Assembly (NCBI GenBank): GCA_964555875.1
Contig: CAZKUD010000004.1
Location: forward strand, 3,580 to 67,579
Direction of reading: 5' to 3'
From: an uncultured archaeon
Lineage (GTDB): Archaea > Aenigmatarchaeota > Aenigmatarchaeia > QMZP01
Length of the DNA stretch: 64,000 bases
A model generated the notes under the pieces. It had not been told where the DNA came from. It saw nothing but the letters and a program-made list of their open reading frames with translations, and made no database searches. Below, piece by piece: positions 22,500 to 60,100 of the stretch. The position numbers and the translations under genes are program-made. The stretch's first letter is position 1; each line of letters starts with the position of its first letter.

Positions 22500-22566
22500 G
22501 CGAAAGCAATCAGAGGGTAACGCCCCGGCTCTCAGCTTTATAAATGTGTTGCAACTAATTATATTC

Positions 22567-23097
22567 ATGGTGTTTGAAACCATTATCCAGAACATGCAGA
22601 CAATGGGCTTTTTCCAGTATCTGTTCCCATTCCTGCTTGCGCTGGCGATACTTTACGGCGTCATGACTGTCGCCCTGAAGGACAAGATGCCGAAGAACGC
22701 GATTGCTCTGATATCGCTGATACTCTCGTTCTTCGTGATGCTGTTCGTCAGCTCAAACCCTGGAATAGTAACATTCCTGATGAACATCTCTGGCTACTGG
22801 CTGGTGATAGGATCCGGAATACTGTTCCTTCTGGTTCTGCTGGGAATGTTCGGAATTAAAGCAGAGAAACTGATGGAAGGGGACTGGAGCAAGTGGATCC
22901 TGATACTTGTCATCGTTGCGATCGCGCTGGTGATCTTCTTCGGTGCAGGCGGGGAGGCCCTAGTCGGAGTGCCCTCAGGAGTATTCAGTTCTGAGCTGTG
23001 GACGATAGTGTTCTTTATCGTCATACTGGCTCTCGTGATGTTCGTGATGGGCAAAGAAGGCGGCTCTGGCGGAGGCGAGAAGCCGAAGCCAGCCTAA
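22567..23097 (+). CDS. Polytopic membrane protein, hypothetical (ORF track starts at GTG 22546; the ATG at 22567 sits about 27 nt after the TATA box at 22537, suggesting a leaderless mRNA)
   Basis: Five or six hydrophobic helices, Gly/Ser-rich C-terminus. Confidence 0.55.
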   Translation: MVFETIIQNMQTMGFFQYLFPFLLALAILYGVMTVALKDKMPKNAIALISLILSFFVMLFVSSNPGIVTFLMNISGYWLVIGSGILFLLVLLGMFGIKAEKLMEGDWSKWILILVIVAIALVIFFGAGGEALVGVPSGVFSSELWTIVFFIVILALVMFVMGKEGGSGGGEKPKPA

Positions 23098-23170: not shown

Positions 23171-24040
23171 TCAGGCCTGCTTCTCTTTCATCGTCTTGAT
23201 GGTCTCTGACAGGGACCTGAGGGACTGCATCATGGGGGTGAGGCTGTCCTTTATGGCGCGCTCCATCGCCTCTGTCCTCTCGCTGAGCTCCCCTATCGAT
23301 GACTTGTAGGATTCCATGCCGGCCTTTATCTCCTCTACGCCTGCCGAGCCTCCGCCCCTGCCTGCGCCTGGCTCCATGCCGGCCATCCTGGAGCTTATGG
23401 AATCGACCCTCTTTGACAGCTCAGCCAGCTGGGCCTCTATCGTCCTTATCCTTTCTTCCACTATGCTCTCCGCTATCTCTTCCATCTCTCCCCTTCCCAC
23501 ATGGCTCGCCTTCCTTCCGGGGGGAGGGGGCAGCGGCTCCATCTCCTCATCAAAGTCCTCGTCCTCTGGCGGCAGGGCGGAAGGCCTTCTGCCGGCAGGG
23601 GCCGGCGGCTGGGGCGCGCCTTCAGGCGGCCTCCATCCCCTCGAGGGGGGCTCCGGCTCTTCCCCCAAGACATCATCTCCCTCAGGAGGCGCGAACCTTC
23701 CCGGAGGGAACTCTGCCATCTCGAGCGAGCCCGGCCCAGGTGGCGGCTCCATCTCCTGCCCGGCCGGGGGCCTGGGCGCAGGCGCCCTTGGCGCCGGCTC
23801 CCTCTGGGGCTGCCTGGCGGGCGCTATGTCCGGGACTGCAGGGGTTCCTGTGACCGATTCCTTAAGCACGCCCTTCATGGCCTGGTCGACATCCTTCGGG
23901 CCGTAACCCTCTGCCCTGAGCGACCTCAGTATCTCGACCTCTGAAAGGCCCTGGGCAGAAAGCTCCCTAACCCTGTCCCCTGCTCCCGGCCTGCCTGGCG
24001 TGGACTTGGGCTTTTTCTTAAAAAGTGACAGACTTACCAT
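23171..24040 (-). CDS. Pro-rich low-complexity protein with C-terminal coiled coil
   Basis: PxxP-rich middle, heptad-rich C-terminus. Confidence 0.45.
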   Translation of the reverse strand: MVSLSLFKKKPKSTPGRPGAGDRVRELSAQGLSEVEILRSLRAEGYGPKDVDQAMKGVLKESVTGTPAVPDIAPARQPQREPAPRAPAPRPPAGQEMEPPPGPGSLEMAEFPPGRFAPPEGDDVLGEEPEPPSRGWRPPEGAPQPPAPAGRRPSALPPEDEDFDEEMEPLPPPPGRKASHVGRGEMEEIAESIVEERIRTIEAQLAELSKRVDSISSRMAGMEPGAGRGGGSAGVEEIKAGMESYKSSIGELSERTEAMERAIKDSLTPMMQSLRSLSETIKTMKEKQA

Positions 24041-24082: not shown

Positions 24083-24505
24083 TTATTCGTTGATGCCCTT
24101 CTTCGACCAGTAGCCCTTGAGCCTCTTGTCAAGCATCCTCTCCACTTCCTCCTTCGTCATGAACTGGGACTTCAGGGGGCTGTATATCTCCAGGAGCGTC
24201 TCGAGCTCCTTTATCTTTGTCATGCTCACGGACTTCTTGAGCCTGTCCACTATGTCCTTTATGGTCCCCTCTATCTTTATTATCCTCTCGCTCTCGTCTA
24301 TTATACTCTTCTCCAGGACCTCCACCATGTTCTTGACCTGCTTGGTCTGCTCCATCAGGGCCTCCTCCAGCGTGGTTATCCTGGAGGTGGTGACGTCCGC
24401 CTTCTCCTCCAGTATCCTGAGCCTCCTCATGTTGGAGTTCGTGCGCTCCACCAGCTCCGTGAGTATCTCCCTGATGGTGAGTCTTGCTGGCGCTTTTTTC
24501 GGCAT
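24083..24505 (-). CDS. Coiled-coil protein (140 aa)
   Basis: Continuous heptad pattern. Divergent from the ATPase gene. Confidence 0.45.
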   Translation of the reverse strand: MPKKAPARLTIREILTELVERTNSNMRRLRILEEKADVTTSRITTLEEALMEQTKQVKNMVEVLEKSIIDESERIIKIEGTIKDIVDRLKKSVSMTKIKELETLLEIYSPLKSQFMTKEEVERMLDKRLKGYWSKKGINE

Positions 24506-24548
24506 ACCTGTTTTTTATTAAGTCGTCTGGGCATAAATATATACAGGG

Positions 24549-26816
24549 GTGCCTATGGCTGCTTGTACCTGTCCTTATGAATATAATGAAGAACGGATGC
24601 AGATACGCTTCAACTGCATGGGCAGCGTCTACGGGTCTTCCATAGAGGACTTTGCCGAATGCATGTCGCATGCCATGGATGCCATCCTGGAGACCAAGAA
24701 GGTCCAGTCCATTGTTTTTGCCAGGGAGAGGGAATACGAGTACGATGCTGAGCAGGTCGGGATGCTGCTCGAGATAGCGCATGTCATAGAATACGTGATG
24801 AGGGAGAGGCTGGTGTCAAGGGCCCAGAAGATGTTCGTGAGGTGCAAGAAGTGCTACCCGGAGTGGCACGGGACCTTGAACCACATCGTTTTCGACCTGC
24901 TGAGGAAGGACCCGATAGGCGGCTACGTGCAGCTCACCAGGGAGATGAGGAAGCTCAAGTCAATGAAGTCCAGGGACAGGAGATGCCAGCTCTGCATCGG
25001 GAAGTACCTGGACGACGTCCTGGGGGTCGTAAAAGGCAAGCTCGAGGAGACCAGGATGATAAAGGAGGCCAGGCCGCATGTTATGGGCTACCATATCGGA
25101 GACAGGAGCCTCTACAGGCAGATTTTCATGCCCAGCACTAGGCCCAATTTCATGTTCACGCGCTTCATGGTCACCCCGCCTGAGGGAGGCAGGAGCGTCG
25201 ACAGGTACAAGGTCGGGGACGTCCAGATAGAGGTATACAAGCTCCCCCATGAGGCAGAGTACTTCTACCATGTGCTTCCGCCCGAGTTCAGGCTGCCTGA
25301 GGACCAGTATGCGGTGCTGGACGCCGCCAGAAGGTACATGGCGACCCACAGGCCGACGACTGCGGAGTTCATGAAGTCCGAGAGGATAAGGGACATATTC
25401 TTCAACATAGGCCGGGACACCATAAGGGACACGGCAGACTCGATGAAGGTGCACCTGACGTCCAAGCAGGTTGACCAGCTGGCCAACATACTGACCAGGT
25501 ACACGGCAGGGTTTGGCGTGCTGGAGATACTGCTGTCCGACGAGAAGCTCCAGGACATCTACCTGAACTCCCCCATAGAGAGCCAGCCCGTCCTGGTCTT
25601 CCACGGGGACTGGGGGGAGTGCAAGACCAACCTCATACCCACCAGGGAAGACGCCGAGGCCTGGGCGACAAGGCTGAGGATACAGTCAGGCAGGCCCCTG
25701 GACGAGGCCAACCCCGTGCTGGACGTTGACATATCTGTTCCCGGAGGGAAGGCCAGGTTCGCTGTTGTAACCAACAGCCTGTCCCCCGAGGGGCTGGGCT
25801 TCGCGATAAGGAGGCACAGGTACAGGCCCTGGACCCTGCCCCTGTTCATACAGAAGGATTTCCTGAGCCCGCTTTCCGCTGGACTGCTCTCCTTCCTGGT
25901 GGACGGGAACGCCGCCATGCTGGTGGCAGGCGGGAGGTCATCGGGCAAGACGTCGCTGCTCTCAGCATTGATGCTGGAGCTGCTCCCCAAGGTCAGGATA
26001 GTCACCATAGAGGACACCCTGGAATTGCCGGTCGAGCAGATGAGGAAAATGAAGTACAACATAGAGAGCCTCAAGTCCCGTTCCGTCATCACGAGGGTCG
26101 AGACAGAGATGCCTGCCGACGAGGCGCTCAGGACGTCCCTCAGGCTGGGAGATTCCGCCATGATAGTGGGGGAGATACGTAGCGTCGAGGCCAAGGCCCT
26201 CTGGGAGGCCATGAGGATAGGCGCCCTGTCTAACGTGGTGGCAGGCACCATACACGGGGAGAGCCCCTACGGGGTGTATGACAGGGTGGTGAACGACCTG
26301 GGCGTCCCGCCCACCTCCTTCAAGGCGACCGACATAGTCGTGATATGCAAGATGCTGAGGTCTGCCGACGGCCTGAAGAGGTACAGGAGGGTGACGGACA
26401 TAACAGAGGTCAGGAAGAAATGGGAGCATGACCCTGTTAGGGAAGGCGGCTTCATGGACCTCATGCAGTACTCCGGGAAGGAGGACAAGCTGAAGGGGAC
26501 CGATACCCTGGTTAACGGGGAGTCGGAGATACTCAACAGGATCTCGTCCTATGTGAAGGAATGGTCGGGCAACTGGGAGGCTGTCTGGGGGAACATACAG
26601 CTCAGGGCCAAGATAAAGGAGACCATGGCCCGACTTTCAACCGAGCTCAACCGGCCCGACATAGTGGAGGCCGAATGGGTCGTAAGCTCCAACAACAAGT
26701 ACCACCTGTTAGCAGAGAGGCTCAGGCAGGAGATAGGCTATTCTGACCCCAGGAGGGTGTACGAGGAATGGCTGAAGTGGTTCAAGGGGAGCATAAAGAA
26801 GGCGGCTTATGGCTGA
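24549..26816 (+). CDS. FlaI/VirB11/GspE-family secretion-type ATPase with a roughly 300-aa Cys-containing N-terminal extension
   Basis: Walker A GGRSSGKTSLLSAL, VTIEDTLEL, Asp/His boxes IVGEIRSVEA and TIHGESP, FAIRRH. N-terminal CTCPYEY...CKKC...CQLC. 755 aa against about 540 aa for FlaI. Confidence 0.8.
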   Translation: MPMAACTCPYEYNEERMQIRFNCMGSVYGSSIEDFAECMSHAMDAILETKKVQSIVFAREREYEYDAEQVGMLLEIAHVIEYVMRERLVSRAQKMFVRCKKCYPEWHGTLNHIVFDLLRKDPIGGYVQLTREMRKLKSMKSRDRRCQLCIGKYLDDVLGVVKGKLEETRMIKEARPHVMGYHIGDRSLYRQIFMPSTRPNFMFTRFMVTPPEGGRSVDRYKVGDVQIEVYKLPHEAEYFYHVLPPEFRLPEDQYAVLDAARRYMATHRPTTAEFMKSERIRDIFFNIGRDTIRDTADSMKVHLTSKQVDQLANILTRYTAGFGVLEILLSDEKLQDIYLNSPIESQPVLVFHGDWGECKTNLIPTREDAEAWATRLRIQSGRPLDEANPVLDVDISVPGGKARFAVVTNSLSPEGLGFAIRRHRYRPWTLPLFIQKDFLSPLSAGLLSFLVDGNAAMLVAGGRSSGKTSLLSALMLELLPKVRIVTIEDTLELPVEQMRKMKYNIESLKSRSVITRVETEMPADEALRTSLRLGDSAMIVGEIRSVEAKALWEAMRIGALSNVVAGTIHGESPYGVYDRVVNDLGVPPTSFKATDIVVICKMLRSADGLKRYRRVTDITEVRKKWEHDPVREGGFMDLMQYSGKEDKLKGTDTLVNGESEILNRISSYVKEWSGNWEAVWGNIQLRAKIKETMARLSTELNRPDIVEAEWVVSSNNKYHLLAERLRQEIGYSDPRRVYEEWLKWFKGSIKKAAYG

Positions 26817-26946
26817 AAAGAAGGACGGGAAGGAGGCCAAATCCACTTACATGTGCGCTGTTTGCGGGCACATATCGATAGGCAGGATACCTGTCAAGTG
26901 CCCTGGATGCGGCGCAGGAAAGGAGAACTTCCAGAAGGTAGCATGA
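26809..26946 (+). CDS. Zinc-ribbon micro-protein (46 aa; MAEKKDGKEAKSTYMCAVCGHISIGRIPVKCPGCGAGKENFQKVA), translationally coupled to nadK by an ATGA overlap
   Basis: CxxC-x13-CxxC. Starts 8 nt before the ATPase stop. Not in the ORF track (under 60 aa). Confidence 0.45.
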   Translation: MAEKKDGKEAKSTYMCAVCGHISIGRIPVKCPGCGAGKENFQKVA

Positions 26947-27692: not shown

Positions 27693-28670
27693 ATGTACAG
27701 GTGCAGGAACTTCAGGATGCTGCTGCCTGACTCTGAAGAGGTCAGGCTGTACGGGAGCCAGGACATAGTGATAGAGGAGGGCCGGCCCATGGCCAGGACC
27801 GTCCAGGACGTCGACCTCTACATGAGGATGGAAGAGGCCTGGTGCAGGCTGTTCAGGGATGCTGTTAAAAACGACAGGAACCTCTTCGCAGGCCCCCAGT
27901 ACAGGCTCAGCTCATACGGACTGTTGCCTGATGGAAAGCTCCTGCTCAGGCTCGGGCCGACAGACTACAGGGAGTTCGTGGGAACCAACATGGAAGCAGG
28001 CAAGGATCCTGAGTATATGAAGGCTCTCATTGAGAGAGGCATGCTGAGACTGCAAGATGAGAACGCGTTCTTTTCCAATACCATGGCAATATGCTCTGCC
28101 ATAGAGACATCAGACGGGAAGGTGGTTGCCGGCCTGAGGGGGGACAGGACGCGTGTGGCAGAGTACGGAAGGGCATGGCACACCATAGGGGGGCACCCGA
28201 ACCCTTCCCGTTTTGCTCCCACAAGGGCAGACCTCATCGATGCAATGACAAGGGAGATAACAGGCGAACTTCTGATAGAGGAGGAGGACATAACAGATAT
28301 CAGGGCTGCCGGCCTGGTCAGGAACGGATACACAAGGAAGCCTGAGCTGCTATTCACATCCAGGATAGGCCTTCCTTTCAGCGCCATAAAGGAGAGCAGG
28401 ATAGCTGACGGAAAGGACGAGCACTTCATGTTCTTCGGCCTGGACGGGCCAGAGGAGCTTGCTGACTTCCTCAGGAAGAACCAGGCCAACTTCACGTTCC
28501 CGGAGGGCGCAAGGCTGACGGACGAGGAAAGGGCCATAATGACGCCGGATGGCCTCGCAGACAACACGAGCAACCACTTCTGCCCCCCGGGGGAGGCGTG
28601 CTGGACTGTATATCTCATGCAGAAGGGTATGGACATACGAAGGGAACTCCCTCACCTGGAGCCTGTCTGA
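27693..28670 (+). CDS. Hypothetical protein, possibly a divergent NUDIX-like fold
   Basis: Segment WHTIGGHPNPSRFAPTRADLIDAMTREITGELLIEEED weakly resembles a Nudix box. Low confidence. Confidence 0.4.
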   Translation: MYRCRNFRMLLPDSEEVRLYGSQDIVIEEGRPMARTVQDVDLYMRMEEAWCRLFRDAVKNDRNLFAGPQYRLSSYGLLPDGKLLLRLGPTDYREFVGTNMEAGKDPEYMKALIERGMLRLQDENAFFSNTMAICSAIETSDGKVVAGLRGDRTRVAEYGRAWHTIGGHPNPSRFAPTRADLIDAMTREITGELLIEEEDITDIRAAGLVRNGYTRKPELLFTSRIGLPFSAIKESRIADGKDEHFMFFGLDGPEELADFLRKNQANFTFPEGARLTDEERAIMTPDGLADNTSNHFCPPGEACWTVYLMQKGMDIRRELPHLEPV

Positions 28671-30136
28671 TTCGCCCTGTAAACGACCACCGCCTCGGGC
28701 TCGCCCCACTGCCCCCAGGACTTCACCTTCTCGAACTCCCTGTCGAAGTACGCTATCGTCCTGGCAGGGTTCATGAGCTCGAACTTGTATGAGAGCACGT
28801 AGGTTATGTTGTGCTTCTCCAGCAGCGGCAGGACAGCAGTAGCCTCCCATGTCCTGGCTATTATCTGGGCCTGGCACGCCTCCCAGGCATCGTTGACGAT
28901 GTAGTTCTCGCAGTACGGCACGGCCTTCCTGCCCACCAGGTACACGTAAGGGTAGGACTGCGTAAGTACGCTCTCTCCGGGCCCTGTCTTTCCCTCCAGG
29001 AAAAGGGCCGCCTGGTAGAGCCCTGACGCAGAGTCCCTGTCCTCCCATGCCATGGACAGGCCGTATGCTAGGCTGGTGACAGAGAGCACGCATACGGCAG
29101 CCACCGCCAGCTTCTTCCAACGGCCGTTCAGCATGGCCTCCCTTGCGCCCAGGCCGGCAAGCAGGGCATATGCGGGGAAGAACGAGAGCAGGTACCTGGG
29201 CTCCTTATGGCCGGACCCCAGGAAGAATGCCAGTGATATTACCAGTACCAGGACCGAAACCATCAGGGCAGGGTTCCTCCTCCTGCGCTTTGAGTGCAGG
29301 ACGAAAAGCCCGAATGCCAGGAAGACCCAGGCGTAGTTGAGGGACGAAGCAAGCATATGGAGGCCCTCCAGAAGGGTCTGTGCGAACGAGAAGGTCCAGA
29401 TGTTGAAGTTGGTTACGAAGGCCCCCACAGGGTTCCCGTAATAGGCCTGGCCTATCCAGAACCAGGGGATTAGCGACAGGATGAACCCTGACAGCAGGGC
29501 GGCGAGGGGCCTGAATTCAGGCATCCTCTTCCTGGCAAGGGGAGAAAGGAAGTAGACGATGTAGGCGAGCACCAGGACGTAAGCCAGGTACCTCGTCATG
29601 AAAGCTGCCCCTGCAAGGGCCCCGCAGAGGAACAGGTCCTTCTTGTCCCTGCCCCTGGACCAACTGGAGAACATAATCATCGAATGGGAGAACAGGACAA
29701 TGAATATGGGCTCTGACATTATCTTGGAGCTGAAGAAGACGAACAGGTGGGACGTGGCTGTGAAGGCAGCGGCAAACAGGGCCCCGGTTTCCCCCAGGGC
29801 GTCCCTCCCCAGCCTGTAGACGGCCAGCACTGAAAATATCGATATCAGCGCAACGAAGCACCTGGCATAATCGGCTGACCAGTAAAAGGATGATATCACC
29901 AGCGGCGTGACAGGGGGCCTGAAGCTCTCCAGGGGGACGCCGGGCTCAAGGGTGTACTGGTAGGATGAGAGGGCCCTTCCCAGCCCCAGGTAGACCGCCT
30001 CGTCCCACCAGAGCCCACCTGACTGGGATATGACGTAAAGCCTGCCTGCAAGCGATGCCAGCACCACGAGCGCCAGGAGCGCCCCCCACCGGGAAAGTTT
30101 CATGTATTTATTTTCTCCTGCCGAAATAATAAGCAT
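28652..30136 (-). CDS. GT-C fold glycosyltransferase (GT39/GT83, ArnT/PMT-like), polytopic membrane protein
   Basis: More than ten TM helices, first-loop DE motif LWWDEAVY, large C-terminal soluble domain. Confidence 0.7.
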   Translation of the reverse strand: MLIISAGENKYMKLSRWGALLALVVLASLAGRLYVISQSGGLWWDEAVYLGLGRALSSYQYTLEPGVPLESFRPPVTPLVISSFYWSADYARCFVALISIFSVLAVYRLGRDALGETGALFAAAFTATSHLFVFFSSKIMSEPIFIVLFSHSMIMFSSWSRGRDKKDLFLCGALAGAAFMTRYLAYVLVLAYIVYFLSPLARKRMPEFRPLAALLSGFILSLIPWFWIGQAYYGNPVGAFVTNFNIWTFSFAQTLLEGLHMLASSLNYAWVFLAFGLFVLHSKRRRRNPALMVSVLVLVISLAFFLGSGHKEPRYLLSFFPAYALLAGLGAREAMLNGRWKKLAVAAVCVLSVTSLAYGLSMAWEDRDSASGLYQAALFLEGKTGPGESVLTQSYPYVYLVGRKAVPYCENYIVNDAWEACQAQIIARTWEATAVLPLLEKHNITYVLSYKFELMNPARTIAYFDREFEKVKSWGQWGEPEAVVVYRANQTGSR

Positions 30137-31376
30137 GCTATGGACTACTATCCTTAACTATCTCGCCTGGTACATATTCGTGTTCCTGGGCGTGATGTGG
30201 ATACTGGTGCTCTTCCAGAACAAGGGGAAGGTCAAGGGGAAGGTGCCCAGCCCCTCCAGGCTGCCTCCGGTCTCGGTCATACTGCCTGCGTACAACGAGG
30301 AGAAGACCCTCGCCAAGAGCATAAGGTCGATACTCAGCCTGGACTACCCCAGGAGGCTCCTGGACATAATAGTCGTCAATGACTGCTCCACTGACAGGAC
30401 CGGGGAGATTGCCGAGTCCTTCAGGAAGGAGGGCGTGAGGGTGCTCCACAACAAGAGGAACGTGGGCAAGGCGGCCGGCCTGAACAGGGGGATAGCGGCC
30501 GCCAAGCACGAGCTGATAGCGACAGTGGACGCGGACTCCATAGTGGAGCCGCCCATCATAAGGAAGATGGTCGGCTACTTCAGCGACCCGGGGGTCGCCT
30601 CGGTCACCCCTGCCCTGAAGGTCTGGAAGCACGGGGGCATGCTGGAGAAGATGCAGCACGCGGAGTACCTGCTGAACGTGTTCCTGAGGAAGATACTCTC
30701 CTTCCTGGACTCCATACACGTGACCCCCGGGGTGTTCTCCATGTACAGGAAGAGTGTGCTGAAGGAGATAGGGGGCTTCGATGAGGGCAACCTGACAGAG
30801 GACCTGGAGGTGGCCCTCAACATACACAGGCACGGGTACAGGATAGAGAACAACCTGGACGCCTGCTCTTACACGCTCTGCCCGAGGAAATGGAGGCAGC
30901 TGTTCAGGCAGAGGATTAGGTGGTACAGGGGCGCGATACAGAACACCATCAAGCACCGTCATCTGTTTTTCAACCCCAGGTTCGGGAACCTCGGGATGTT
31001 CTTCCTTCCGGCGAACATAATCTCTGTGGTGGCGATAATAGCGCTGTTCTTCGTCATGGCCTGGAACTGGATGAGCACGACTGCCGACTATGTCTGGAAG
31101 ATGTCGATGATAAACTGGGACTTCTCGGTGTACATGGGCTCATTGGACCTGATGTCCATGTTCTCGAATGCGATTTCCACGCCCATGCTCTTCGCCCTCA
31201 TCGGGCTGGTCCTGGGTGGCTACGTCCTGTACGTGAGCTTCAAGGTGTGCGACTCCAGGGTCAGGCACAACAAGCTGGGCTACCTGCTCTACCTGGTCCT
31301 GTTCCCGATGGTCATGATGGCCTTCTGGACGCTCGCCTTCCTGTACGAGGTCGTCGGCGCGAAGAAGAACTGGTGA
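30102..31376 (+). CDS. Family 2 glycosyltransferase, membrane-integrated (processive-type motifs)
   Basis: LPAYNEE, DXD (VDADS), QRIRWYRG (QxxRW). TM helices at both ends. Confidence 0.8.
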   Translation: MYLFSPAEIISMLWTTILNYLAWYIFVFLGVMWILVLFQNKGKVKGKVPSPSRLPPVSVILPAYNEEKTLAKSIRSILSLDYPRRLLDIIVVNDCSTDRTGEIAESFRKEGVRVLHNKRNVGKAAGLNRGIAAAKHELIATVDADSIVEPPIIRKMVGYFSDPGVASVTPALKVWKHGGMLEKMQHAEYLLNVFLRKILSFLDSIHVTPGVFSMYRKSVLKEIGGFDEGNLTEDLEVALNIHRHGYRIENNLDACSYTLCPRKWRQLFRQRIRWYRGAIQNTIKHRHLFFNPRFGNLGMFFLPANIISVVAIIALFFVMAWNWMSTTADYVWKMSMINWDFSVYMGSLDLMSMFSNAISTPMLFALIGLVLGGYVLYVSFKVCDSRVRHNKLGYLLYLVLFPMVMMAFWTLAFLYEVVGAKKNW

Positions 31377-31458
31377 GGCCTTTGCGGGCTTCGCCCCCCA
31401 CTTCGCAAAAAAGGTTTCAAACAAACAACTTTTTATTCCGGGGAGACAATCTTAATCT

Positions 31459-32124
31459 ATGGCCAGGAAGCAGCTGAACGCAGGCACCATAATATCAGCC
31501 CTGATAATATCGGCGGTCATATTCTGCGGAGGCATGATGCTGGGATTCAGCATCAACAAGGAGAGGCTCGTCACCATAGAGGATGAGATGAGGGAGGTAA
31601 CCAGGCACGTGCAGAACTTCCAGCTCCAGTTCCTGTTCTTCGACGTCCTGGGAGACAGCGCGACCTGCCCCCTCCTGGGCGCGACCCTGGCTGACATAAA
31701 CAAGGCCTCATACGAGATAGGGGCCAAGCTCACCACACAGGGTGAGGAGGGCCAGGTGCAGGACTATGACACTTACGTGAGCCTGAAGAACGAATACTCC
31801 AGGCTGCTCGTGAGCTACTGGCTGCTGACACAGAAGCTCCAGGAGACGTGCGAGATGGACGCCAAGACCGTCATATACTTCTACAGGAAGGAGTGCGCAA
31901 GGTGCGACGACCAGGGGTTCATACTGACTTACCTCAAGAAGAAGTACGGGGAAAGGCTGCTGATATTCGCCCTGGACGCGGACCTGAGCGACGCGTCGGT
32001 GCAGACCCTGGTCAACTACTACAATGTGGAGGAGTACCCTGCCCTCATAATAGACGGGGAGCTGCATGAGGGCTTCCTTTCAGAGGCGCAGATGAAGGGC
32101 ATGATGGGGCTCAACGGGCTGTGA
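31459..32124 (+). CDS. Membrane-anchored thioredoxin-like protein (CxxC)
   Basis: N-terminal TM helix. FYRKECARCDDQG resembles a Trx-fold active site. Confidence 0.5.
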   Translation: MARKQLNAGTIISALIISAVIFCGGMMLGFSINKERLVTIEDEMREVTRHVQNFQLQFLFFDVLGDSATCPLLGATLADINKASYEIGAKLTTQGEEGQVQDYDTYVSLKNEYSRLLVSYWLLTQKLQETCEMDAKTVIYFYRKECARCDDQGFILTYLKKKYGERLLIFALDADLSDASVQTLVNYYNVEEYPALIIDGELHEGFLSEAQMKGMMGLNGL

Positions 32125-32534
32125 TTATGAGGCATTTTTTGGGCAGGCACAAGGGGCGCTTCACCAGGTTCTGCGTGGTGGGCCTTTCAGGCGTGCTGGT
32201 CAACGAAGGGCTGCTCTGGCTGTTCACGGACATGCTGGGCATATTCTTCCTGCTGTCCTCCCTTGTGGCGATAGAGATATCCATCCTTACCAACTTCACC
32301 CTCAACGAGCTCTGGACATTCAGGGACATGAGGGGCGGGCGGGAGGTCTACACCAGGATGTACCTCTACAACCTGGTCGCCCTGGGCGGGCTGGTGATAA
32401 ACCTCTTTGTTTTGTACGCCCTCACCACCACAGGCATGCACTACCTGATAGCCAACCTGTTCGGCATAGCCGCGGCTGTCCTCTGGAACTACTTCGTGAA
32501 CTACAGGTGGACCTGGCTGGGGGAAAACACTTAA
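32121..32534 (+). CDS. GtrA-family membrane protein (glycolipid translocation / GtrA-like)
   Basis: 137 aa, four TM helices, RF..VG N-terminal pattern, WNYFVNYRWTW C-terminus. Confidence 0.7.
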   Translation: MIMRHFLGRHKGRFTRFCVVGLSGVLVNEGLLWLFTDMLGIFFLLSSLVAIEISILTNFTLNELWTFRDMRGGREVYTRMYLYNLVALGGLVINLFVLYALTTTGMHYLIANLFGIAAAVLWNYFVNYRWTWLGENT

Positions 32535-49126: not shown

Positions 49127-49270
49127 AACTATCTATAACCGTAACCTTTTTAAACCCTTATTTTATCTATTGGTATTGAACCGCATATAAATGCGATAAA
49201 ACACTGGTCATAATTGGCTCTTTCTCAGAACAGAGTTAACAATGATGAACAGAAAAAAGGAAGTGATAAA

Positions 49271-51103
49271 ATGAACGAAAAAACAAAAAGCGCTAGCAAT
49301 AAGTCTAGCAGAAAGAAGGTCGTCCCGGACACGAGCGTGCTCATCCTGGGGACGATATCGGGCCGGATAAAATCCGGCAAGCTGAAGGGCGCAAGGATCC
49401 TCATTCCCAAGGCAGCCATAGACGAGCTGCAGGCCCAGGCAAGCAGGGGTCACGAGACCGGCTTCAAGGGGCTTGAGGAAGTCAAGGCCATAAGGGCGCT
49501 GGGAAAACAGAAGGGCATAGAAGTGGAATTCCCGGGCACGCGGCCGACCCTAGAGGAGATACACCTGGCCAAGAAGGGCAGGATAGACGCCCTGATAAGG
49601 GACGTTGCCGCCAAGAGCGGCGGGAAGCTGCTTACTGCCGATTATGTTCAGGCCCTTGTGGCCGAGGCAGAGGACGTTGCAGTGGAATACGTCCCACAGC
49701 CCGTCAAGAAGAAGGTCAGCATAGAGTCCTTCTTCAGGGAGGGGATGCAGTCCCTCCATATGAAGGTGGGGGTGCCTCCCATGGCCAAGATAGGCAGGCC
49801 TGGCGAGGTGAAGCTCGTGCAGCTCAAGAAGCAGAAGGTGGACGAGGACGGGCTGAAGGCAATGATAGACGAGATAGTCTACCAGGCCAAGAAGAAGGAC
49901 GATTCCTTCATAGAGATAGGGAGGAACGGAGCCACTGTCGTGCAGATGGGGGAGTACAGGATATCCATAACCAGGCCCCCTTTCTCTGACGCCATGGAGC
50001 TGACAGCTGTCAGGCCCATAGCCAAGGTGAAGCTGGACGACTACCAGCTGCATGAGGAGCTGAAGGAAAGGTTCGCCAAGAAGTCCCAAGGTGTCCTGAT
50101 AACAGGACCGCCTGGGGAGGGCAAGACGAGCTTCGCCTCGGCCCTGGCCAAGTTCCTGAGCAGCCAGGACAAGGTTGTCAAGACATTCGAGCAGCCCAGG
50201 GACCTGCAGGTAGGCCCTGAGGTCACCCAGTACGGCCCCCTGGAGGGGGACTGGGTCAAGTCAGCGGAGATTCTCCTGCTGGTGAGGCCCGACTACACCA
50301 TATTCGACGAGATCAGGAAGACATCCGACTTCAGGATATTCGGTGACATGAGGCTGGCTGGTGTCGGCATGATTGGGGTGGTGCACGCCACGTCCCCCGT
50401 GAGCGCAATACAGCGTTTCATAGGGCGCGTTGAGCTGGGCATGATACCCAACATAATAGACACCGTCATCTTCGTGGAGGCAGGCAGGGTCTCCAAGGTG
50501 TACGAGATGGTGCTGAGCGTGAAGGTGCCTTCAGGCATGACCGAGGCCGACCTGGCCAGGCCTGTGGTGGAGGTGAAGGACTTCGCCACCAAGAAAGCGG
50601 AGTATGAGATATACACGTTCGGGAACGAGAACGTCATCATACCTGTCAAGGAGGGCGCCAAGGGCTCGCCTGTCAATGAGCTCGCCAAGCAGAGGGTAGA
50701 GCAGGAGCTCAGGAGGTACGACCCCTCTGTGGAGGTGGAGGTCGTCGGCGCCAACAAGGTGGTGGCCCGGGTCCGCAATGAGTCCATGGCCCGGCTCATA
50801 GGAAGGAAGGGCGAGAACATAAGCTCCCTGGAGAAGAGGCTGGGCATCTCAATTGATGTCCAGCCCAGGGAAGCCACAATGAAGCAGGGACTGAAATGGA
50901 GGCACCAGGAATCCGGCGCCTTCGTGAACATCCTTGTGGACCCTGAGCTCACAGGAGAGCAGGTGGACGTCTACAGGGCTGACGAGTACATATTCTCCCC
51001 CTACGTGGGGAAGGGCGGGGCGATAAAGGTCAAGAAGCGCTCCCCGCTCGGCAGCAAGATAATGGGAGCGATATACTCCCGAAGACTGAGAGTGATGGCA
51101 TAA
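49271..51103 (+). CDS. PIN-domain / PilT-PhoH-like ATPase / C-terminal KH domain protein (COG1855-like)
   Basis: PIN-like N-terminus, Walker A GPPGEGKTS, KH-like RLIGRKGENISSLEKRLGISIDV. The ORF track starts at 49214; the ATG at 49271 has an SD-like AGGAAGTGA. Confidence 0.75.
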   Translation: MNEKTKSASNKSSRKKVVPDTSVLILGTISGRIKSGKLKGARILIPKAAIDELQAQASRGHETGFKGLEEVKAIRALGKQKGIEVEFPGTRPTLEEIHLAKKGRIDALIRDVAAKSGGKLLTADYVQALVAEAEDVAVEYVPQPVKKKVSIESFFREGMQSLHMKVGVPPMAKIGRPGEVKLVQLKKQKVDEDGLKAMIDEIVYQAKKKDDSFIEIGRNGATVVQMGEYRISITRPPFSDAMELTAVRPIAKVKLDDYQLHEELKERFAKKSQGVLITGPPGEGKTSFASALAKFLSSQDKVVKTFEQPRDLQVGPEVTQYGPLEGDWVKSAEILLLVRPDYTIFDEIRKTSDFRIFGDMRLAGVGMIGVVHATSPVSAIQRFIGRVELGMIPNIIDTVIFVEAGRVSKVYEMVLSVKVPSGMTEADLARPVVEVKDFATKKAEYEIYTFGNENVIIPVKEGAKGSPVNELAKQRVEQELRRYDPSVEVEVVGANKVVARVRNESMARLIGRKGENISSLEKRLGISIDVQPREATMKQGLKWRHQESGAFVNILVDPELTGEQVDVYRADEYIFSPYVGKGGAIKVKKRSPLGSKIMGAIYSRRLRVMA

Positions 51104-53776: not shown

Positions 53777-54184
53777 TCATCCCTTTCTGATTTCCCGTAT
53801 GATCCTGCTAGTGCTGTATCCAGGAAGCCTTTTCTTTATCCTGACAACCTTGCATTTTATGCCCATTGCCTTCAGGCGTTTTCTTATTTCATTATCGTCC
53901 TGGTCGAAGCCCAAGGCTATCACGTCTGGTTTCTCCTCCCTTACCGCCTTCATCATGTCTGACGGGTGGCCCACCCTCACCTTGTCGACGAACCCCAGGC
54001 TGCCCACCATATCCTTCCTGTCCTTTGCAGAGAACGAGAGCCTGCCGCTCTTTCTGCCGGCTGTCCTGTCATGGGCCACCACCACCACCAGGCTGGTGCC
54101 CAGCCTCCTGGCGGCCTTCAGGAAGAATATGTGCCCCGGATGGAGCAGGGAGAACACGCCGCCGACAAGGACCTTCCTTCCCAT
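53777..54184 (-). CDS. ribL: Cytidylyltransferase-family nucleotidyltransferase, archaeal FAD synthase RibL-like
   Basis: GGVFSLLHPGHI (HxGH) motif, 135 aa. Similar to archaeal RibL/PPAT-type enzymes. Confidence 0.6.
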   Translation of the reverse strand: MGRKVLVGGVFSLLHPGHIFFLKAARRLGTSLVVVVAHDRTAGRKSGRLSFSAKDRKDMVGSLGFVDKVRVGHPSDMMKAVREEKPDVIALGFDQDDNEIRKRLKAMGIKCKVVRIKKRLPGYSTSRIIREIRKG

Positions 54185-57100
54185 CAGCCCCTCCTTACCG
54201 TGAGCGCGTATCCGGAACCGGTCTTGTTGCTCTCCAGGATAAGCTTGTGGGTCCCTGGGTTGAGTATCAGGTCGCTCTGCACGTCTATGTTGCCGTAGCC
54301 CAGCAGGCTCTTGACCGTGCTGTAAAGTCCCAGCCCGTAGCCGAAGCTCGGGGAAGGCTTCTCCAGGAACTGCTGGGACTTTATCAGGCCCATCTTCTCC
54401 TCTATCGCCCTCCAGTCACCCTTCGTGAAGACCAGGAAGGCCAGCGGGTTGTCCTTGCCCAGGGCGACTGTCATGGTGTGGGAGGAGGGGGTCTTGTCGT
54501 ATCTCAGGAACTCGGGATTCTGGTAGGCGAAGACCAGGCCGTAAAGGACCCCGCTCCCGTAGCTGGCGAGGTAATAGCTGGGCGGGCTGTTCCAGACAGT
54601 CCCCCACTGGCTGGCTGGCTTGGCGCCTGCCCCGGGCACGTAAACCATGTTGCTGGTGTTGTTGATGGTCAGGCTTATGGTCAGGTTGCCCACGGCCGCG
54701 CCTGACACTGTCAGGGTGTCGTTCTCTGACTTGCTGTCATACCCTCCCCTATGGCATGTGACGTTCCAGCCGTATGTCCCGTGGCTGCTGAATGACCTGC
54801 TGAAGGTGTAAAGGGCTGTGGGTATGCTGTAGGACATCTGGTACTGCCCGTCGCTGAAGCTTATGTTGCAGCTGCTGCTCGTTAGCGCGCTGCCGCCTGA
54901 GGTGTAGTTGGCGTAGAAGCCGACAGACTGCCCGACCCTTATGGTCTGCCCGCCGCCCGCAGGGTCTCCGCTGTCCCATATGCTCAGTAAGGACGCCTGG
55001 GTGTCGCATATGTTGTCTATCCCGTCAGCGTCATCGTCCTGCCCTGTGTTAACCTGGTTCGGGCACATGTCGCACACCATGTTCGGGTCCCCGTAGAGGC
55101 TCGTGTTCACGCCCTCTGTCCAGCCGTCCTGGTCGAAGTCTGCCTTGGCGCAGGTCCAGCCCGTCCCCCTGCTGGTCAGGCTGTCGCAGACATAGAAGAC
55201 CTTCTTGTAAGAGCTCACCTGGTCGCCGTCCTCGTCCGTCACGTTCACGTAGGCCCTGTACATGCCATCAGAGTTGGGGGCGGGCACGGTCCCGTTGCAC
55301 TCCACGGTCGAGCCCGAGCCCCCTGTCTTCGTCAGGGTCCCTGACCAGACAACCGAGCCAGAGGAGTCCTCTATGTAGGCGTTGCATGCAGCGGACTGGA
55401 AGTTTCCGCTGTCCGCTGTCCTGAAGCTGGCTCCTATCAGCGCGCCGTCAGTGCTGCGGTAGAATGGCTCTGTCATGTTTATGGACGCTGCTGTCGGGAC
55501 AGGCATGACGTTTATCCCTATCGTCCTGCTCCCCCCATTGGTGCCCGTGTTGTCTGCGCCGTCCGTTGCGTTGGCGGAGAGCTGGTAGCTCCCGTCATCG
55601 TCAGTGTAGGTGGTGGCGTACAGGCAGTTCCCGTCGCTGGACTGCACGACCGTCCCGTCAAGGTCGAAGGCGCACCTGCATATGCCTGACGGGTCGCTGG
55701 ACGGTATCGCCCTGTACCTTATGGTGCCCCCGTATGGTATGTTCACGAAGTTCGAGGAGTTTATCGGCCCGACCTCTACTGAGGAGACGGTCGGCGGCGT
55801 GTTCTCATAGACTGTCGGGCTCCTGGTGCCTGCCCCATTGTCCGGGGAGCCGTCCGAAAGCGAGTTGGTTATGGAGATGGAGTATGTCTTTGCCTGTGGC
55901 GAGGACACCCCTCCACAGTTCAGGGTGACATCAAACCCGTTCAGCGGGTTCCCTGCTCCCACCTGGCCCGGGTCATGGTCTATCCTTCCGACCTGGTCCT
56001 GGGTGGACACGTACCTGAGCTTGTTGGCGTTGGTGCCGCTCATCGTGCAGTTGGAAGCGTTGTACGGGAAGTACCTGGTCGGGTCTGTGGCGTCGCCCAG
56101 GATTATGGAGATCGAATTGTAGCTGCCTGAGCCCACCACCCTTACCGTGTAGTTGGTGAAGACATAGTGCCTCTGCAGGTGTCCCACGGAAACCGTTGTC
56201 CCGCCTACGGCTGACGGGCTTGTCGTGTAAGGTATGGTGGTGCAGCCCACAGTCGACCAGCCCTGGCTCGGGCACGCGCCCACGCCGTAGCAGTCGCTGT
56301 CGGCGCAGTCATAGTAGCCGTCGGCGTCATTGTCCAGGCCGTCCGTGCAGCTGGTTTCGGTCCCGTATTCGCACCATCCCACTCCGTTGCAGTCCACGTC
56401 AGCGCAGTCTGCCCCTCCCTGCGCGTCATTGTCGAAGCCGTCGAAGCAGCTGGTTTCGGTCCCGTATTCGCATGCCTCCCCGTTGGCCGTGGAGCCTATC
56501 TCCCCTGAGCAGTTTATGTCCGCGCAGTCTGTTATTCCTGTCGGCATCATGTGGTCATTGTCCAGGCCGTCCGAGCAGGATGACCAGGTGTAGTTCTCCT
56601 CTCCCGGGCAGGGGCCGCATGAGCCGAACTTCCTGTTGCAGTCAGGGTCGGTGCAGTCAGTGCCGCCGTTGGGCCAGCCCTGGGAGTTGTCCCCGTCGTC
56701 ATCATAGTTGTTGTTGCAGAACTGGTAGTGCTGGGCGAGGTTGAACTCGTATGGGTAGCAGACCTCGTTCGGGTTGGCCGGGTTGGCCACCCCCAGGCAG
56801 TCCACGTCAGCGCAGTCTATGTTGGCCGCAGGACCTGTGTATGTCATGGAGGGGTTGTCCAGGTCATTGTCTATGTTGTCGAAGCACTGGCTGTCATTAA
56901 CCTGCCCGTACCTGTTGTGCCTCTCATTGGTCGGGCACGTGTCGGTCCCGTTCGTCTGGCCCCTGCAGTCATAGTCCCTGCAGTCCGAGCCGCCGGTCTG
57001 GCTGCAGCTCCTGCTGTTGGAGCCGTCGTCATAGTCATTGTTTATGCCGTCGAAGCACCAGCCAGCCAAATTGCTCTCGTTGGACGGGCAGGGGTCTGAA

Positions 57101-60100
57101 GTGGACGTGCCTCCCTTCTGCCAGCAGACTGTCGGGTCGCAGCAGTCTATGTAGTCGGTGTAGCCCGTGCTGTACGGGGTGGATGCGTCCTGGTCATTGT
57201 CGAACAGGTCTGCGCATGCTGTCCTCCAGGGGTAGAATGACTCATGGGTGGCGTTGCTGAAGCCAGCCCCCTCCTGGTACTCGCACAGGTTGGTCATGTC
57301 CTGGTAGTCGCCGGGCTTCAGGTCGCAGTCGGCGTCCGCGCAGTCGTACCCGTCCTGGGCGTCGTTGTTGAAGCAGTCGTAGCAGGTGAGCTCCAGGCCG
57401 TACTCGCAATAGGCGTTCCCTGAGGTGCAGTTTGTGCCGCCTATGAACCCGTCGCAGTCCTGGTCAGCGCAGTTGGGGTAGTAGTCCAGGTCGTTGTCGG
57501 GCACGTATCCGCTCACTGCCGGGTCAGAGCATGGCGCGGATATTGTCCCTGACATCTCCTCTGTCTCGTTCCAGTTGGTGGGTGCCGAGGAGCTTACTAT
57601 TATGGGCACGTCGTAGATTATCAGGTTGGAGCCGTACTGAGTTATGGAGACCGTTATGTTGTGCTCGCCAGAAGACCATCCGCTGGTCAGGTTGACGTAC
57701 ATGACCATGTCTATGTCGCCTGTGTAGCCTGATGCGTCCTCCGCCTTGTAGGTCACGTTCTGGCCGCCTGACTGGGCTATCTGGTCGCTTGTGAGGTTAT
57801 GAGAGCCCGGTGCAGGGTACTTGCCGTACGAAACGAATCCGTCATCGAGGTCTGTCAGGGCGAAGGCTATCGGCTGTCCGGTGGAGTAGCTGCCCCCGTC
57901 GAACCTGAACTTCAGCGTGCCGCCGTTCTGGACGTACCTGGTGTAATAGTATGTCGTGGAGTGCCCGCCCACTGTCTTGGTCTCCCAGCATATGCCGTTC
58001 GAGCATGTCCCCCCGAACGGGTCGTCGACTGGCGTATGGTTGGCGCAGGAGTAGGTTATGCCTCCGCAGTACTGGTCACCGCAGTCCGACAGGACGTTCC
58101 CGTCATTGTCCTGGCCGTCATGGCACCAGCCCTCTATGTTGACGCCCCTGCTCATTGCCACCGCGAAGGCTACGTCACCGGAGTAGTCGCACCTGTAGGT
58201 GTTGTTGAAGAACACCTTGTCGAACTGGAGGAAGCAGTCGAGCGCCCTGTAGGCGTCGTCGCCTATGTCGTCGAACCTGTTCCAGGTGTTCCCGTGGACG
58301 AATATCTTCTTGCCCAGCCAGGGCTCCCTCCCGTAGTCTGTAGCGTTGGTGTACAGGAGCCCCCTCCCTGAATTGTACAGGGAGCAATTGTGCACCCACC
58401 AGGGAGAGGTCTTGTTGTAGGAGTCCGAGAAGCTCATGTTGTGGTTAAGGTATTCCTGGCCGTTGCTCACGCTGCTGCCAAGCGTCTTGTTCAGGTAAAG
58501 CATGCTGCCGTTGGACATCTCTATCTCGCACTCGAGTATGCTGCCCGAAGAGGCGCTGAAGTTTTGGAATGTTATGTTGAAGTCGAACTTGTGCGTGCCC
58601 GGTATGGTCGCATTATAGGGCTCGTAAACGCCCTCCGGGAAGCTTATGTTGAGCCAGGCCACCACAGTCGTCAGGTTGGCTGGGTACGGGCCCAGGTCGT
58701 TGACGAACCCTGTCACGTTGGCCCCGTTGGTTGCGTTGTAGGGATACTGTGAGCCGTAGTCCCCGAAACCGTCGCCGTCAGTGTCGAATATCTGCAGGGT
58801 GCTGAGGTCGTCCCACGTGTTGCCCTCGTGTTGGTAGCCCTGGGGCTTGGATGTGTTTGTCCTGTAGAACATGTTGCCTGAAACTGAGCCAGCATGGTAG
58901 CCAATGCTTCCGGTGAAATTGTTGGAGTAGAGCACGTTGCCGACCGAGTTGTCTGTCAGGTTTGCCCCTATCTGGTTTTCCAGGAATGTGTTGTTGCTGA
59001 TGGTGTTGTTTTCAGCGCTGTCCAGGTGTATTCCTATCTGGCTGCTGTCGCGCACGGTGTTGAGGCATACTGAGTTGTTGTCTGCTGAATCCAGCAGTAT
59101 GCCAACAGGGTTCCTTTCCAAGGCGTTGCCGGAAACCGTGATGTTTTCAGCGCTGTCCAGGTAGATGCCGGACTGGCTGCTGTCGCGCACGGTGTTGAGC
59201 CGGATTGAGTTGAAAATTGAGTTGTAGTCATAGATGCCTATGTAATTGTAATCCGCTGTGTTGTTGTACACAGTAATGTTCTCGGAAGTGTCCAGGTAGA
59301 CGCCCTGGGCGTTGGAGCTTACATTATTCTGTTCCAGCGTGCCGTTGTTTGACAGCTCGACAATAACGCCTGAATTGCTGTTGTTGTACAGGGTGTTCTC
59401 CCACACATGGCTGGAGTTGCTGTCATGCAGCATGATGGCATCAGTGAAGTTGAGTATGGTGCAGTTGAAGATGGAAACGTTCTCCTGGCCTGTCACGTTT
59501 ATGGCTATCCCGGAGCCGTCTCCCCTCAGGATGTAGTCGGCGCAGTCGAACGTGATGTTGCTGGCGTTTATTATGAAGCAGTCCCCTGTCACGTTCAGGT
59601 CCTGTATCATGGTGGTGTCGTTGTTTATGAAGCCGCAGCTCAGGTCGCAGACGTTGTCTATCCCGTCAGCGTCGTCGTCCCTTCCCGTGTTCACCTGGCC
59701 CGGGCACATGTCGCACACGAAACCCTGCCCGTACATGCTTATGGTGACGCCCTCTGTCCAGCCGTCCTGGTCGAAGTCTGCCTTGGCGCAGGTCCAGCCC
59801 GTCCCATTGCTGGCCAGGCTGTCGCAGACATAGAATACCCTGGATTCGGAGCTCACCTGGTCGCCGTCCTCGTCCGTTATGTTTACGTAGACCGTGTACA
59901 GCATGTCGATGTTCGGCACTGGTATGGTCCCGTTGCATTCAGCTGCCCCTGAGCCCAGGCTGGTCTTCGTCAGGGTGCCGGAGGAATATACACTGCCCAT
60001 GGCGTCCTGGATGTAATAGTTGCAGGTCCCCGGGAAGCTCCCGTCGCTGGAGGTCTGGAAGCTGGCGCCGAAGCCCATGTCCTCTGTGCTGTAGAAGAAG

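Follow-up and report, generated by a model that had tools for sequence, protein, structure and literature searches.

The best-described counterparts of the locus studied here are pilus-like systems of DPANN archaea. Hamm et al. 2024 (PMC11291902) report two conserved type IV pilus-like loci, comprising a CpaF-like ATPase, TadC and coiled-coil proteins (CCPs), in Nanohaloarchaeota, Woesearchaeota, Pacearchaeota, Nanoarchaeota, Aenigmarchaeota and Undinarchaeota; the CCPs resemble sigma-1 (6GAO), and proteome data of Ca. Nanohaloarchaeum antarcticus include them. According to an earlier study by Makarova, Koonin and Albers 2016 (PMC4858521), ATPases of subclade 4F carry an extra, variable N-terminal Cys-rich domain, for which disulfide bridges were proposed and which is prominent in Methanomicrobia; the subclade is also present in nanoarchaea without identifiable cognate pilins, and some of its loci hold a cytoplasmic coiled-coil protein (arCOG07564). 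Two further papers show that the pilus islands of DPANN abound in pilins that cannot be recognised as such (Makarova et al. 2019, PMC6393860) and list FlaG, FlaI and FlaJ in most metagenome-assembled genomes (MAGs) of Aenigmarchaeota (Li et al. 2021, PMC8407114). Against this background, we analysed a 64-kb stretch of DNA (hereafter the window) from an uncultured archaeon of the Aenigmatarchaeota (contig CAZKUD010000004.1), which encodes a secretion ATPase with a long N-terminal extension and, next to it, two coiled-coil proteins. The best matches of its proteins likewise point to Candidatus Aenigmatarchaeota, and its organism also turns up in JGI 3300017991 and 3300018080. We conclude that this ATPase is most likely the assembly motor of a type IV pilus-like system conserved in cluster-2 DPANN, whose locus is split here.

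In the window, M181, a membrane protein of ~180 aa for which five helices are predicted (22546..23097, + strand; single copy, with the public gene call starting at the ATG at 22567), is followed on the opposite strand by the genes for CC289 (23171..24040, -), a Pro-rich protein of 289 aa, and CC140 (24083..24505, -), a coiled coil of 140 aa, both cytoplasmic and with no predicted transmembrane (TM) segment. The ATPase gene (24549-26816, +) is divergent from CC140, and the 49 bp of AT-rich sequence between their start codons (24506..24554) presumably act as a bidirectional promoter, given this layout.

The open reading frames (ORFs) of 87 loci, i.e. L001-L086 plus 23 kb of the window surrounding its ATPase gene, were clustered by BLAST. 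A recurring order was found, consisting of one to five M181 paralogues, CC289 and CC140 and, divergently, the ATPase, a TadC-like gene and then prepilin-like ORFs. The TadC-like gene, encoding a polytopic protein of ~700 aa, was present in 72 of the 87 loci, usually directly 3' of the ATPase gene. The topology of its family (two TM segments, a soluble region, a TM segment, a soluble region and a last TM segment) is the TadC/FlaJ pattern; T2SSF was the sole Pfam family matched (11 of 24 members), some members carry the JGI name TadB, and the family profile had no match among PDB sequences. Of the 305 ORFs that lie downstream of TadC, 74 had N-termini resembling class-III signals (M-(R)-K-G, then about 20 hydrophobic residues), versus 14 of 1094 other ORFs, and in many loci these prepilin-like ORFs form runs that include one protein of 500-1100 aa. 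In the 73 loci whose upstream sequence extends over 1.8 kb or more, CC140 was encoded upstream of the ATPase in 50, CC289 in 51 and both in 48, in several DPANN phyla. Orthologues of the ATPase sit with TadC and prepilins, and their coiled-coil neighbours are conserved; the coiled-coil genes belong to a pilus-type locus.

The preliminary description of this DNA had rightly drawn attention to the divergent coiled-coil genes, which are real and conserved, and had proposed that the ATPase might serve an undescribed coiled-coil-filament or secretion-like machine rather than a pilus. Such a machine, for which the ATPase would have been repurposed together with CC140 and CC289 and without TadC platform or pilins, is very unlikely. 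It would accord with the lack of any TadC or pilin gene found in the 64-kb window, with the coiled-coil genes staying linked to the ATPase in this sublineage when TadC does not, and with the unusual conservation of the ATPase (about 65% over 750 aa in >100 clusters). In most DPANN lineages, however, orthologues that share this N-extension and these coiled-coil neighbours have TadC and prepilin-like genes directly 3' of them, and CP070801.1, a complete genome split in the same way, keeps the cognate TadC orthologue at another site (see below). Nor is the system undescribed, the association of a pilus-type ATPase with TadC and coiled-coil proteins having been published by Hamm et al. 2024.

The platform gene was searched for in the window with a Methanolobus TadC-like query, then with a profile of 70 TadC-like proteins. 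Neither gave a match in the 64-kb window, in L001 or in L002, and the absence of TadC is real at the 64-kb scale. A scan of the window for class-III signal peptides returned a single ORF, antisense and spurious; the earlier remark that no platform or pilin gene lies nearby was thus borne out by both searches. In the window and in L001, L002, L010 and L094, the genes for M181, CC289, CC140 and the ATPase stand together and no TadC gene follows the ATPase. The closest relative on a long contig, L094 (ATPase identity 70%), shows synteny with the window to either side of the ATPase, through DNA ligase, TrmB, 2-oxoacid oxidoreductase beta subunit, L15e, M181, CC289, CC140, ATPase, glycosyltransferases and MetRS. 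L001 belongs to CP070801.1, a complete genome of 1.05 Mb that is split like the window's. Its TadC orthologue (P0331, 701 aa, 58% identity to the TadC query of the nearest lineage) is located at 229,782-251,887, divergent from a Peptidase_A24 gene, and its ATPase at 634,197-656,467, i.e. about 400 kb apart. A 1202-aa beta-helix/NosD protein is also encoded near this relocated TadC gene (L087 13255-16863).

The opposite break-up is seen in L007, L008 and L012, where the adjacency of ATPase and TadC is retained and the adjacent coiled-coil genes are gone. The ancestral locus is breaking up differently within the phylum, with its parts retained, and the missing platform gene of the window is most likely a case of lineage-specific locus splitting. 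We infer that TadC, the prepilin peptidase and the pilins of the window genome are encoded elsewhere. A solitary TadC on a 143-kb contig (P0328) was considered as the window's own and rejected, owing to a GC content of 39% versus 56% and to an S15 gene of its own.

The ATPase family is widely distributed. More than 100 clusters defined at 90% identity are 61-89% identical to the window ATPase over its full length (about 65% over 750 aa), and of the representatives in a 50%-identity library 292 scored below 1e-30, many of them aligning from residue ~5 to ~750. Outside DPANN, a homologue from Methanolobus zinderi (WP_176964379, 839 aa) aligns over its full length, N-extension included, at 34% identity, and a 9-TM TadC-like gene lies 3' of it. 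Other homologues, e.g. from Methanosarcina (917 aa), align only from residue ~195, and no alignment of their N-terminal regions to the extension was obtained. When one genome per GTDB species was scanned, 80 loci with full-length ATPase matches (47-69% identity, N-extension included) were recovered; as labelled, they comprised 13 Aenigmatarchaeota, 5 Nanohaloarchaeota (including the complete CP046106), 21 Woesearchaeota and 5 Nanoarchaeota, and the remainder were MAGs that are unclassified or of doubtful label. With an ATPase whose identity is about 65% across Aenigmatarchaeota and no lower than 47% between four phylum-level groups, the pilus-like system ranks among the most conserved surface machines of cluster-2 DPANN.

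Some DPANN-type loci were found in MAGs named 'uncultured Methanosarcinales archaeon' or 'Armatimonadota bacterium' (L042, L054, L056, L065, L067, L073, L074 and L076), three of which (L067, L073 and L074) also carry M181, CC289 and CC140; mis-binning or mislabelling is the likely cause. Many orthologous ATPases reach 1260-1780 aa through one or two inteins (Pfam Intein_splicing, LAGLIDADG_3), e.g. P0054, P0072, P0091, P0121, P0122 and others. Insertion is just past the Walker A region, with alignment breaks near residues ~469 and ~492. In the Woesearchaeota locus L083, a second ATPase of the superfamily (511 aa) is encoded on the opposite strand upstream of the main one, and may come from the second pilus-like locus type of Hamm et al.

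The ATPase ORF of the window encodes 755 aa from a GTG codon at 24549; translation more likely begins at the ATG at 24555, which yields 753 aa, since homologues reach within a few residues of the query N-terminus and since this start retains the conserved N-terminal Cys. The 753-aa form is used for residue numbering. The public call (P0001, 739 aa) begins at an internal ATG and cuts off the conserved CxC of metal site 1 (see below). Four regions were delineated, all on the + strand: the N-terminal extension (aa 1-190, 24555..25124), defined by an AlphaFold2 (AF2) model and cysteine conservation; an N-domain (about aa 191-440, 25125..25874), counterpart of the N-terminal domain of FlaI/GspE2/CpaF according to alignments with the NCBIfam FlaI and TadA models and with PDB entries 2oap, 8rkd and 4ii7; the catalytic domain (25875..26624), defined by a motif scan and Pfam T2SSE; and a C-terminal helical tail of ~60 aa which, with the stop codon, occupies 26625..26816 and shows conserved columns up to W742 in the family alignment. 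The motif scan located Walker A (GGRSSGKT, aa 459-466, 25929-25952), the Asp box (RIVTIED, aa 481-487, 25995-26015), Walker B (MIVGEIR, aa 536-542, 26160-26180) and the His box (GTIHG, aa 564-568, 26244-26258), likewise on the + strand. With all four catalytic motifs intact and a T2SSE score of 62.9 bits (cut-off 24.9), the protein has the complete core of the secretion ATPase superfamily, as first described.

Within this superfamily, the ATPase scored 122.8 bits against the NCBIfam TadA-type model (cut-off 373), 122.3 bits against the ArlI/FlaI equivalog NF058587 (cut-off 550) and 55.7 bits against VirB11 TIGR02788 (cut-off 249.95), and remained below 30 bits with the PilB, GspE and PilT models. 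Its best-scoring relatives in PDB were A. fulgidus GspE2 (102 bits), CpaF (79) and FlaI (60), with PilT, VirB11 and GspE at about 25 bits each. As these scores favour GspE2, CpaF and FlaI, the ATPase belongs, on sequence comparison, to the archaeal/Tad-type branch of secretion ATPases and is neither the archaellum motor ArlI nor a VirB11.

An archaellum motor whose arl operon partners are encoded elsewhere would nevertheless explain why JGI names some homologues 'flagellar protein FlaI', and would suit both the presence of FlaG, FlaI and FlaJ in most Aenigmarchaeota MAGs (PMC8407114) and the weak FlaC_arch matches among some CC289 members. We regard it as extremely improbable. The ArlI equivalog score lies far under its cut-off and is no better than that of the TadA model, and the FlaI of S. 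acidocaldarius scores under GspE2 and CpaF. Neither archaellin nor KaiC-like (ArlH) Pfam families occur in the gene calls from 10 related loci, the other loci being unscanned, and Pfam scans of 33 window ORFs revealed no Arl family. Finally, the genes found 3' in related loci are diverse prepilins, including large adhesin-sized ones. The preliminary description had likewise set the archaellum aside, and these results correct the common 'FlaI' annotation of such ATPase genes.

The extension distinguishes the ATPase from its characterised relatives. It had been described as a 300-aa region with three Cys pairs; the pairs are there, together with two single cysteines, and the part without FlaI/GspE2 counterpart is shorter, at ~190 aa, the FlaI model aligning from residue 225 and residue 112 of A. 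fulgidus GspE2 aligning to ATPase residue 302. The cysteines are at positions 4, 6, 21, 36, 97, 100, 144 and 147 (i.e. CxC, CxxC, CxxC and two singles), and eight are conserved across the family, far above chance expectation. Residues 1-230 were modelled with AF2 from 36 diverse sequences (pLDDT 91.8, pTM 0.84). In the model, a small alpha/beta unit (strands 8-11, 16-20, 52-56 and 59-63; helix 34-47) is followed by a six-helix bundle at 65-175 and by the first strands of the FlaI-type N-domain. The extension had not been recognised in the preliminary description, and a confident model does not change this: Foldseek against PDB and viral models gave no match better than E=0.4, and Pfam no domain match. 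In a PDB sequence-profile search only a subtilisin prosegment was matched, which was judged spurious.

In the family consensus, the cysteines form two groups of four, i.e. site 1 (C6, C21, C24 and C36) and site 2 (C97, C100, C144 and C147), and the pattern with all eight is the commonest (64 of 168 sequences). In the sublineage of the window, position 24 is Ser and a Cys has been gained at position 4, so that site 1 of the window ATPase is C4/C6/C21/C36, with site 2 as C97/C100/C144/C147. The two alternatives exclude each other: all 9 sequences with C4 have no C24, and all 124 with C24 have no C4. Since this swap maintains four ligands in site 1, metal sites are favoured over disulfides, and the extension would be a structural domain in which two Cys4 sites are predicted to bind metal, probably zinc. 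A confidently folded two-site N-domain without structural precedent, and the ligand swap in it, are the new detail that the model appears to bring, and it is a modest one.

CC289 comprises a basic N-terminus, a helical domain of ~40 aa (about residues 23-60, consensus GxSExEIIxxLxxxGYSxxEIDxA), a variable Pro/Gln-rich linker and a conserved coiled-coil domain of ~110 aa ending in LEKAFKxxLPxLxESVRxL; orthologues were found in L001, L002 and L004. CC140, whose orthologues in L001 and L002 are 41-43% identical, bears a C-terminal motif, DLxNPIxSxFVT, with an invariant Pro. Alignments of the two families matched each other in hhalign (probability 92%, E=6e-7, 52 columns), with jackhmmer cross-hits in addition; CC140 is thus probably a paralogue of the C-terminal domain of CC289, with the proviso that coiled-coil composition can inflate such scores. 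A CC289-type GYSxxEI helical domain also forms the C-terminal part of a membrane protein of 177 aa (L006 6882-7415, +), which adjoins a more distant ATPase having a different N-terminal region. The small helical domain of CC289 looks like a mobile adaptor module.

Searched against PDB, the CC289 profile had reovirus sigma-1 (6GAO) as top match (E=3e-7), and further matches were mostly trimeric coiled-coil fibres, for example spike HR1, trimeric autotransporter adhesins and haemagglutinin HA2. The most frequent of its weak Pfam matches were to FlaC_arch (11 of 36 members of the family) and DUF7310, a haloarchaeal coiled-coil region (13 of 36). A reading of CC289 as an ArlC homologue or an ESCRT-like protein was rejected, given that only weak, sub-threshold coiled-coil matches speak for it, and stays an analogy. 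The fibre matches raise the question whether, in a machine that is pilus-type all the same, the coiled-coil proteins are exported as sigma-1-like attachment fibres or cargo, an analogy with sigma-1 that is also drawn by Hamm et al. 2024. This appears unlikely, as hydropathy and signal scans detected neither signal peptide, class-III prepilin signal nor TM segment in CC140 and CC289, the Pro-rich linker and small helical N-domain of CC289 are typical of cytoplasmic adaptors, and such coiled-coil matches are largely compositional.

The M181 family has 115 members in 44 loci, as one to five tandem paralogues that adjoin CC289. They follow CC140 and CC289 on the same strand in operon-like fashion or lie on the opposite strand, and the adjacency to CC289 is kept either way, which suggests a functional link between M181 and CC289. 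Hydropathy indicates five segments, and the family profile retrieves the window copy at E=2e-38. About 260 homologues were found, none of them named, a few matching DUF2070 weakly; the AF2 model is helical and of low confidence (pLDDT 70, pTM 0.39). We found no mention of M181 as a part of a DPANN pilus locus in the consulted portions of Hamm et al. 2024 or of the other papers cited, and propose it as a further family linked to this locus and a candidate component.

Several observations weigh against a pilus-type system built from these parts. About a third of the loci have no adjacent coiled-coil genes, including the close relatives L007, L008 and L012. Methanolobus has the N-extension, but no adjacent coiled-coil or M181 genes; the extension is therefore not solely an adaptor for the coiled-coil proteins. 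All cysteines are lost in some lineages (P0123, P0137-P0139), and the fold therefore does not depend on the sites. The FlaC_arch and DUF7310 matches of CC289 are all under curated cut-offs and of coiled-coil type. For the window genome itself, of which 64 kb is covered, none of TadC, prepilin and prepilin peptidase was found.

By analogy with its family, the motor would work as follows. A hexamer of the ATPase at the cytoplasmic face would hydrolyse ATP and dock on the divergent polytopic platform of TadC/T2SSF type, and class-III prepilins, once cleaved by prepilin peptidase, would be driven from the membrane into a surface filament. More conjecturally, CC140 and CC289, which are cytoplasmic and perhaps tethered by M181, may together with the N-domain support or regulate the motor as an accessory structure. 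ArlX of Crenarchaeota and ArlC/D/E of Euryarchaeota, which are thought to build a ring or scaffold round the archaellum ATPase, are likewise coiled-coil or helical cytoplasmic proteins encoded beside the ATPase. The likeness is a functional analogy alone, and ArlX has a TM anchor, which CC140 and CC289 lack.

DPANN archaea live attached to hosts, and the pilus-like system may bear on how they attach and exchange material. The split at the present locus shows which parts stay linked, i.e. the ATPase, the two coiled-coil proteins and the small membrane protein. It is conceivable, and we put it forward as a speculation that is more probably wrong than right, that the N-domain, CC140/CC289 and tandem M181 form a DPANN-specific substructure of the motor, part cytoplasmic and part membrane-bound, stator-, ring- or switch-like and with no solved counterpart, which would adapt the filament machine to host attachment or penetration by episymbionts. 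If such a substructure existed, the sub-module staying together while TadC and pilins disperse would be the outcome of a tight physical complex.

Other genes of the window were also inspected. Directly after the ATPase comes a rubredoxin-like CxxC...CxxC micro-ORF (26809-26946, +), which matches Pfam RUBY_RBDX PF21349 (34.2 bits, cut-off 26.5, E=1.7e-8), overlaps the ATPase stop by 8 nt and has its TGA overlapping the NadK ATG as ATGA. The cysteine pattern and nadK overlap had been correctly described; the size is 45 aa, not 46, and a role as partner of the system was rejected, as small ORFs 3' of the ATPase elsewhere are unrelated or absent. The micro-ORF is missing from the syntenic loci L001, L002 and L094, and as L094 has neither micro-ORF nor NadK, both are an insertion specific to the window genome.

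A glycosylation cluster (28652-32534) lies directly 3' of the ATPase region and comprises a PMT_2/Alg9-like glycosyltransferase (28652-30136, -), a GT2 (30102-31376, +), a membrane-anchored thioredoxin-like protein (31459-32124) and GtrA (32121-32534). Its targets may be surface proteins or pilins; the PMT_2 and GT2 genes occupy the equivalent position in L001, L002 and L094. Further away, a giant ORF (54184-63966, -), which spans 3260 aa or more and contains NosD/right-handed beta-helix repeats, probably encodes a surface protein. A second P-loop ATPase of the superfamily (49214-51103, +; 629 aa), combining PIN, PilT-like ATPase and KH domains, is unrelated and is not a pilus component.

Compared with structurally known motors, the window ATPase shares the two-domain hexameric core and the Walker A/B, Asp and His boxes with A. 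fulgidus GspE2 (2OAP), Caulobacter CpaF (8RKD, 9E24) and S. acidocaldarius FlaI (4II7); it differs by the extra ~190 aa at its N-terminus and ~60 aa at its C-terminus, and lies far under the equivalog cut-offs for FlaI and TadA. Within the archaeal VirB11/CpaF/FlaI superfamily, its features fit the descriptions of subclade 4F given in PMC4858521. The N-terminal Cys-rich domain shared with Methanomicrobia is found here as eight cysteines and as the alignment with Methanolobus zinderi, and the placement in 4F, made by matching descriptions, is a probable one. Where disulfides were proposed for 4F, the 4+4 Cys pattern and the ligand swap of the window ATPase fit metal sites better.

The closest match is with the loci of Hamm et al. 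2024: the lineages, the gene set of CpaF-like ATPase, TadC and coiled-coil proteins, and the 6GAO analogue all correspond. Unlike these loci, the one in the window has neither TadC nor pilins, and we found no mention of the N-extension of the ATPase in the consulted text of that paper. Because 6GAO was reached independently as top match, in the same locus type and the same lineages, CC140 and CC289 are very likely the CCPs of Hamm et al. (NAR1_03220/NAR1_01690). The window thus adds little that is fundamentally new, its modest novelty being the fold of the N-domain with its ligand swap, the probable paralogy of the coiled-coil proteins and M181; the system is the one already described by Hamm et al. 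2024, and the window is a further member of it with a split locus.

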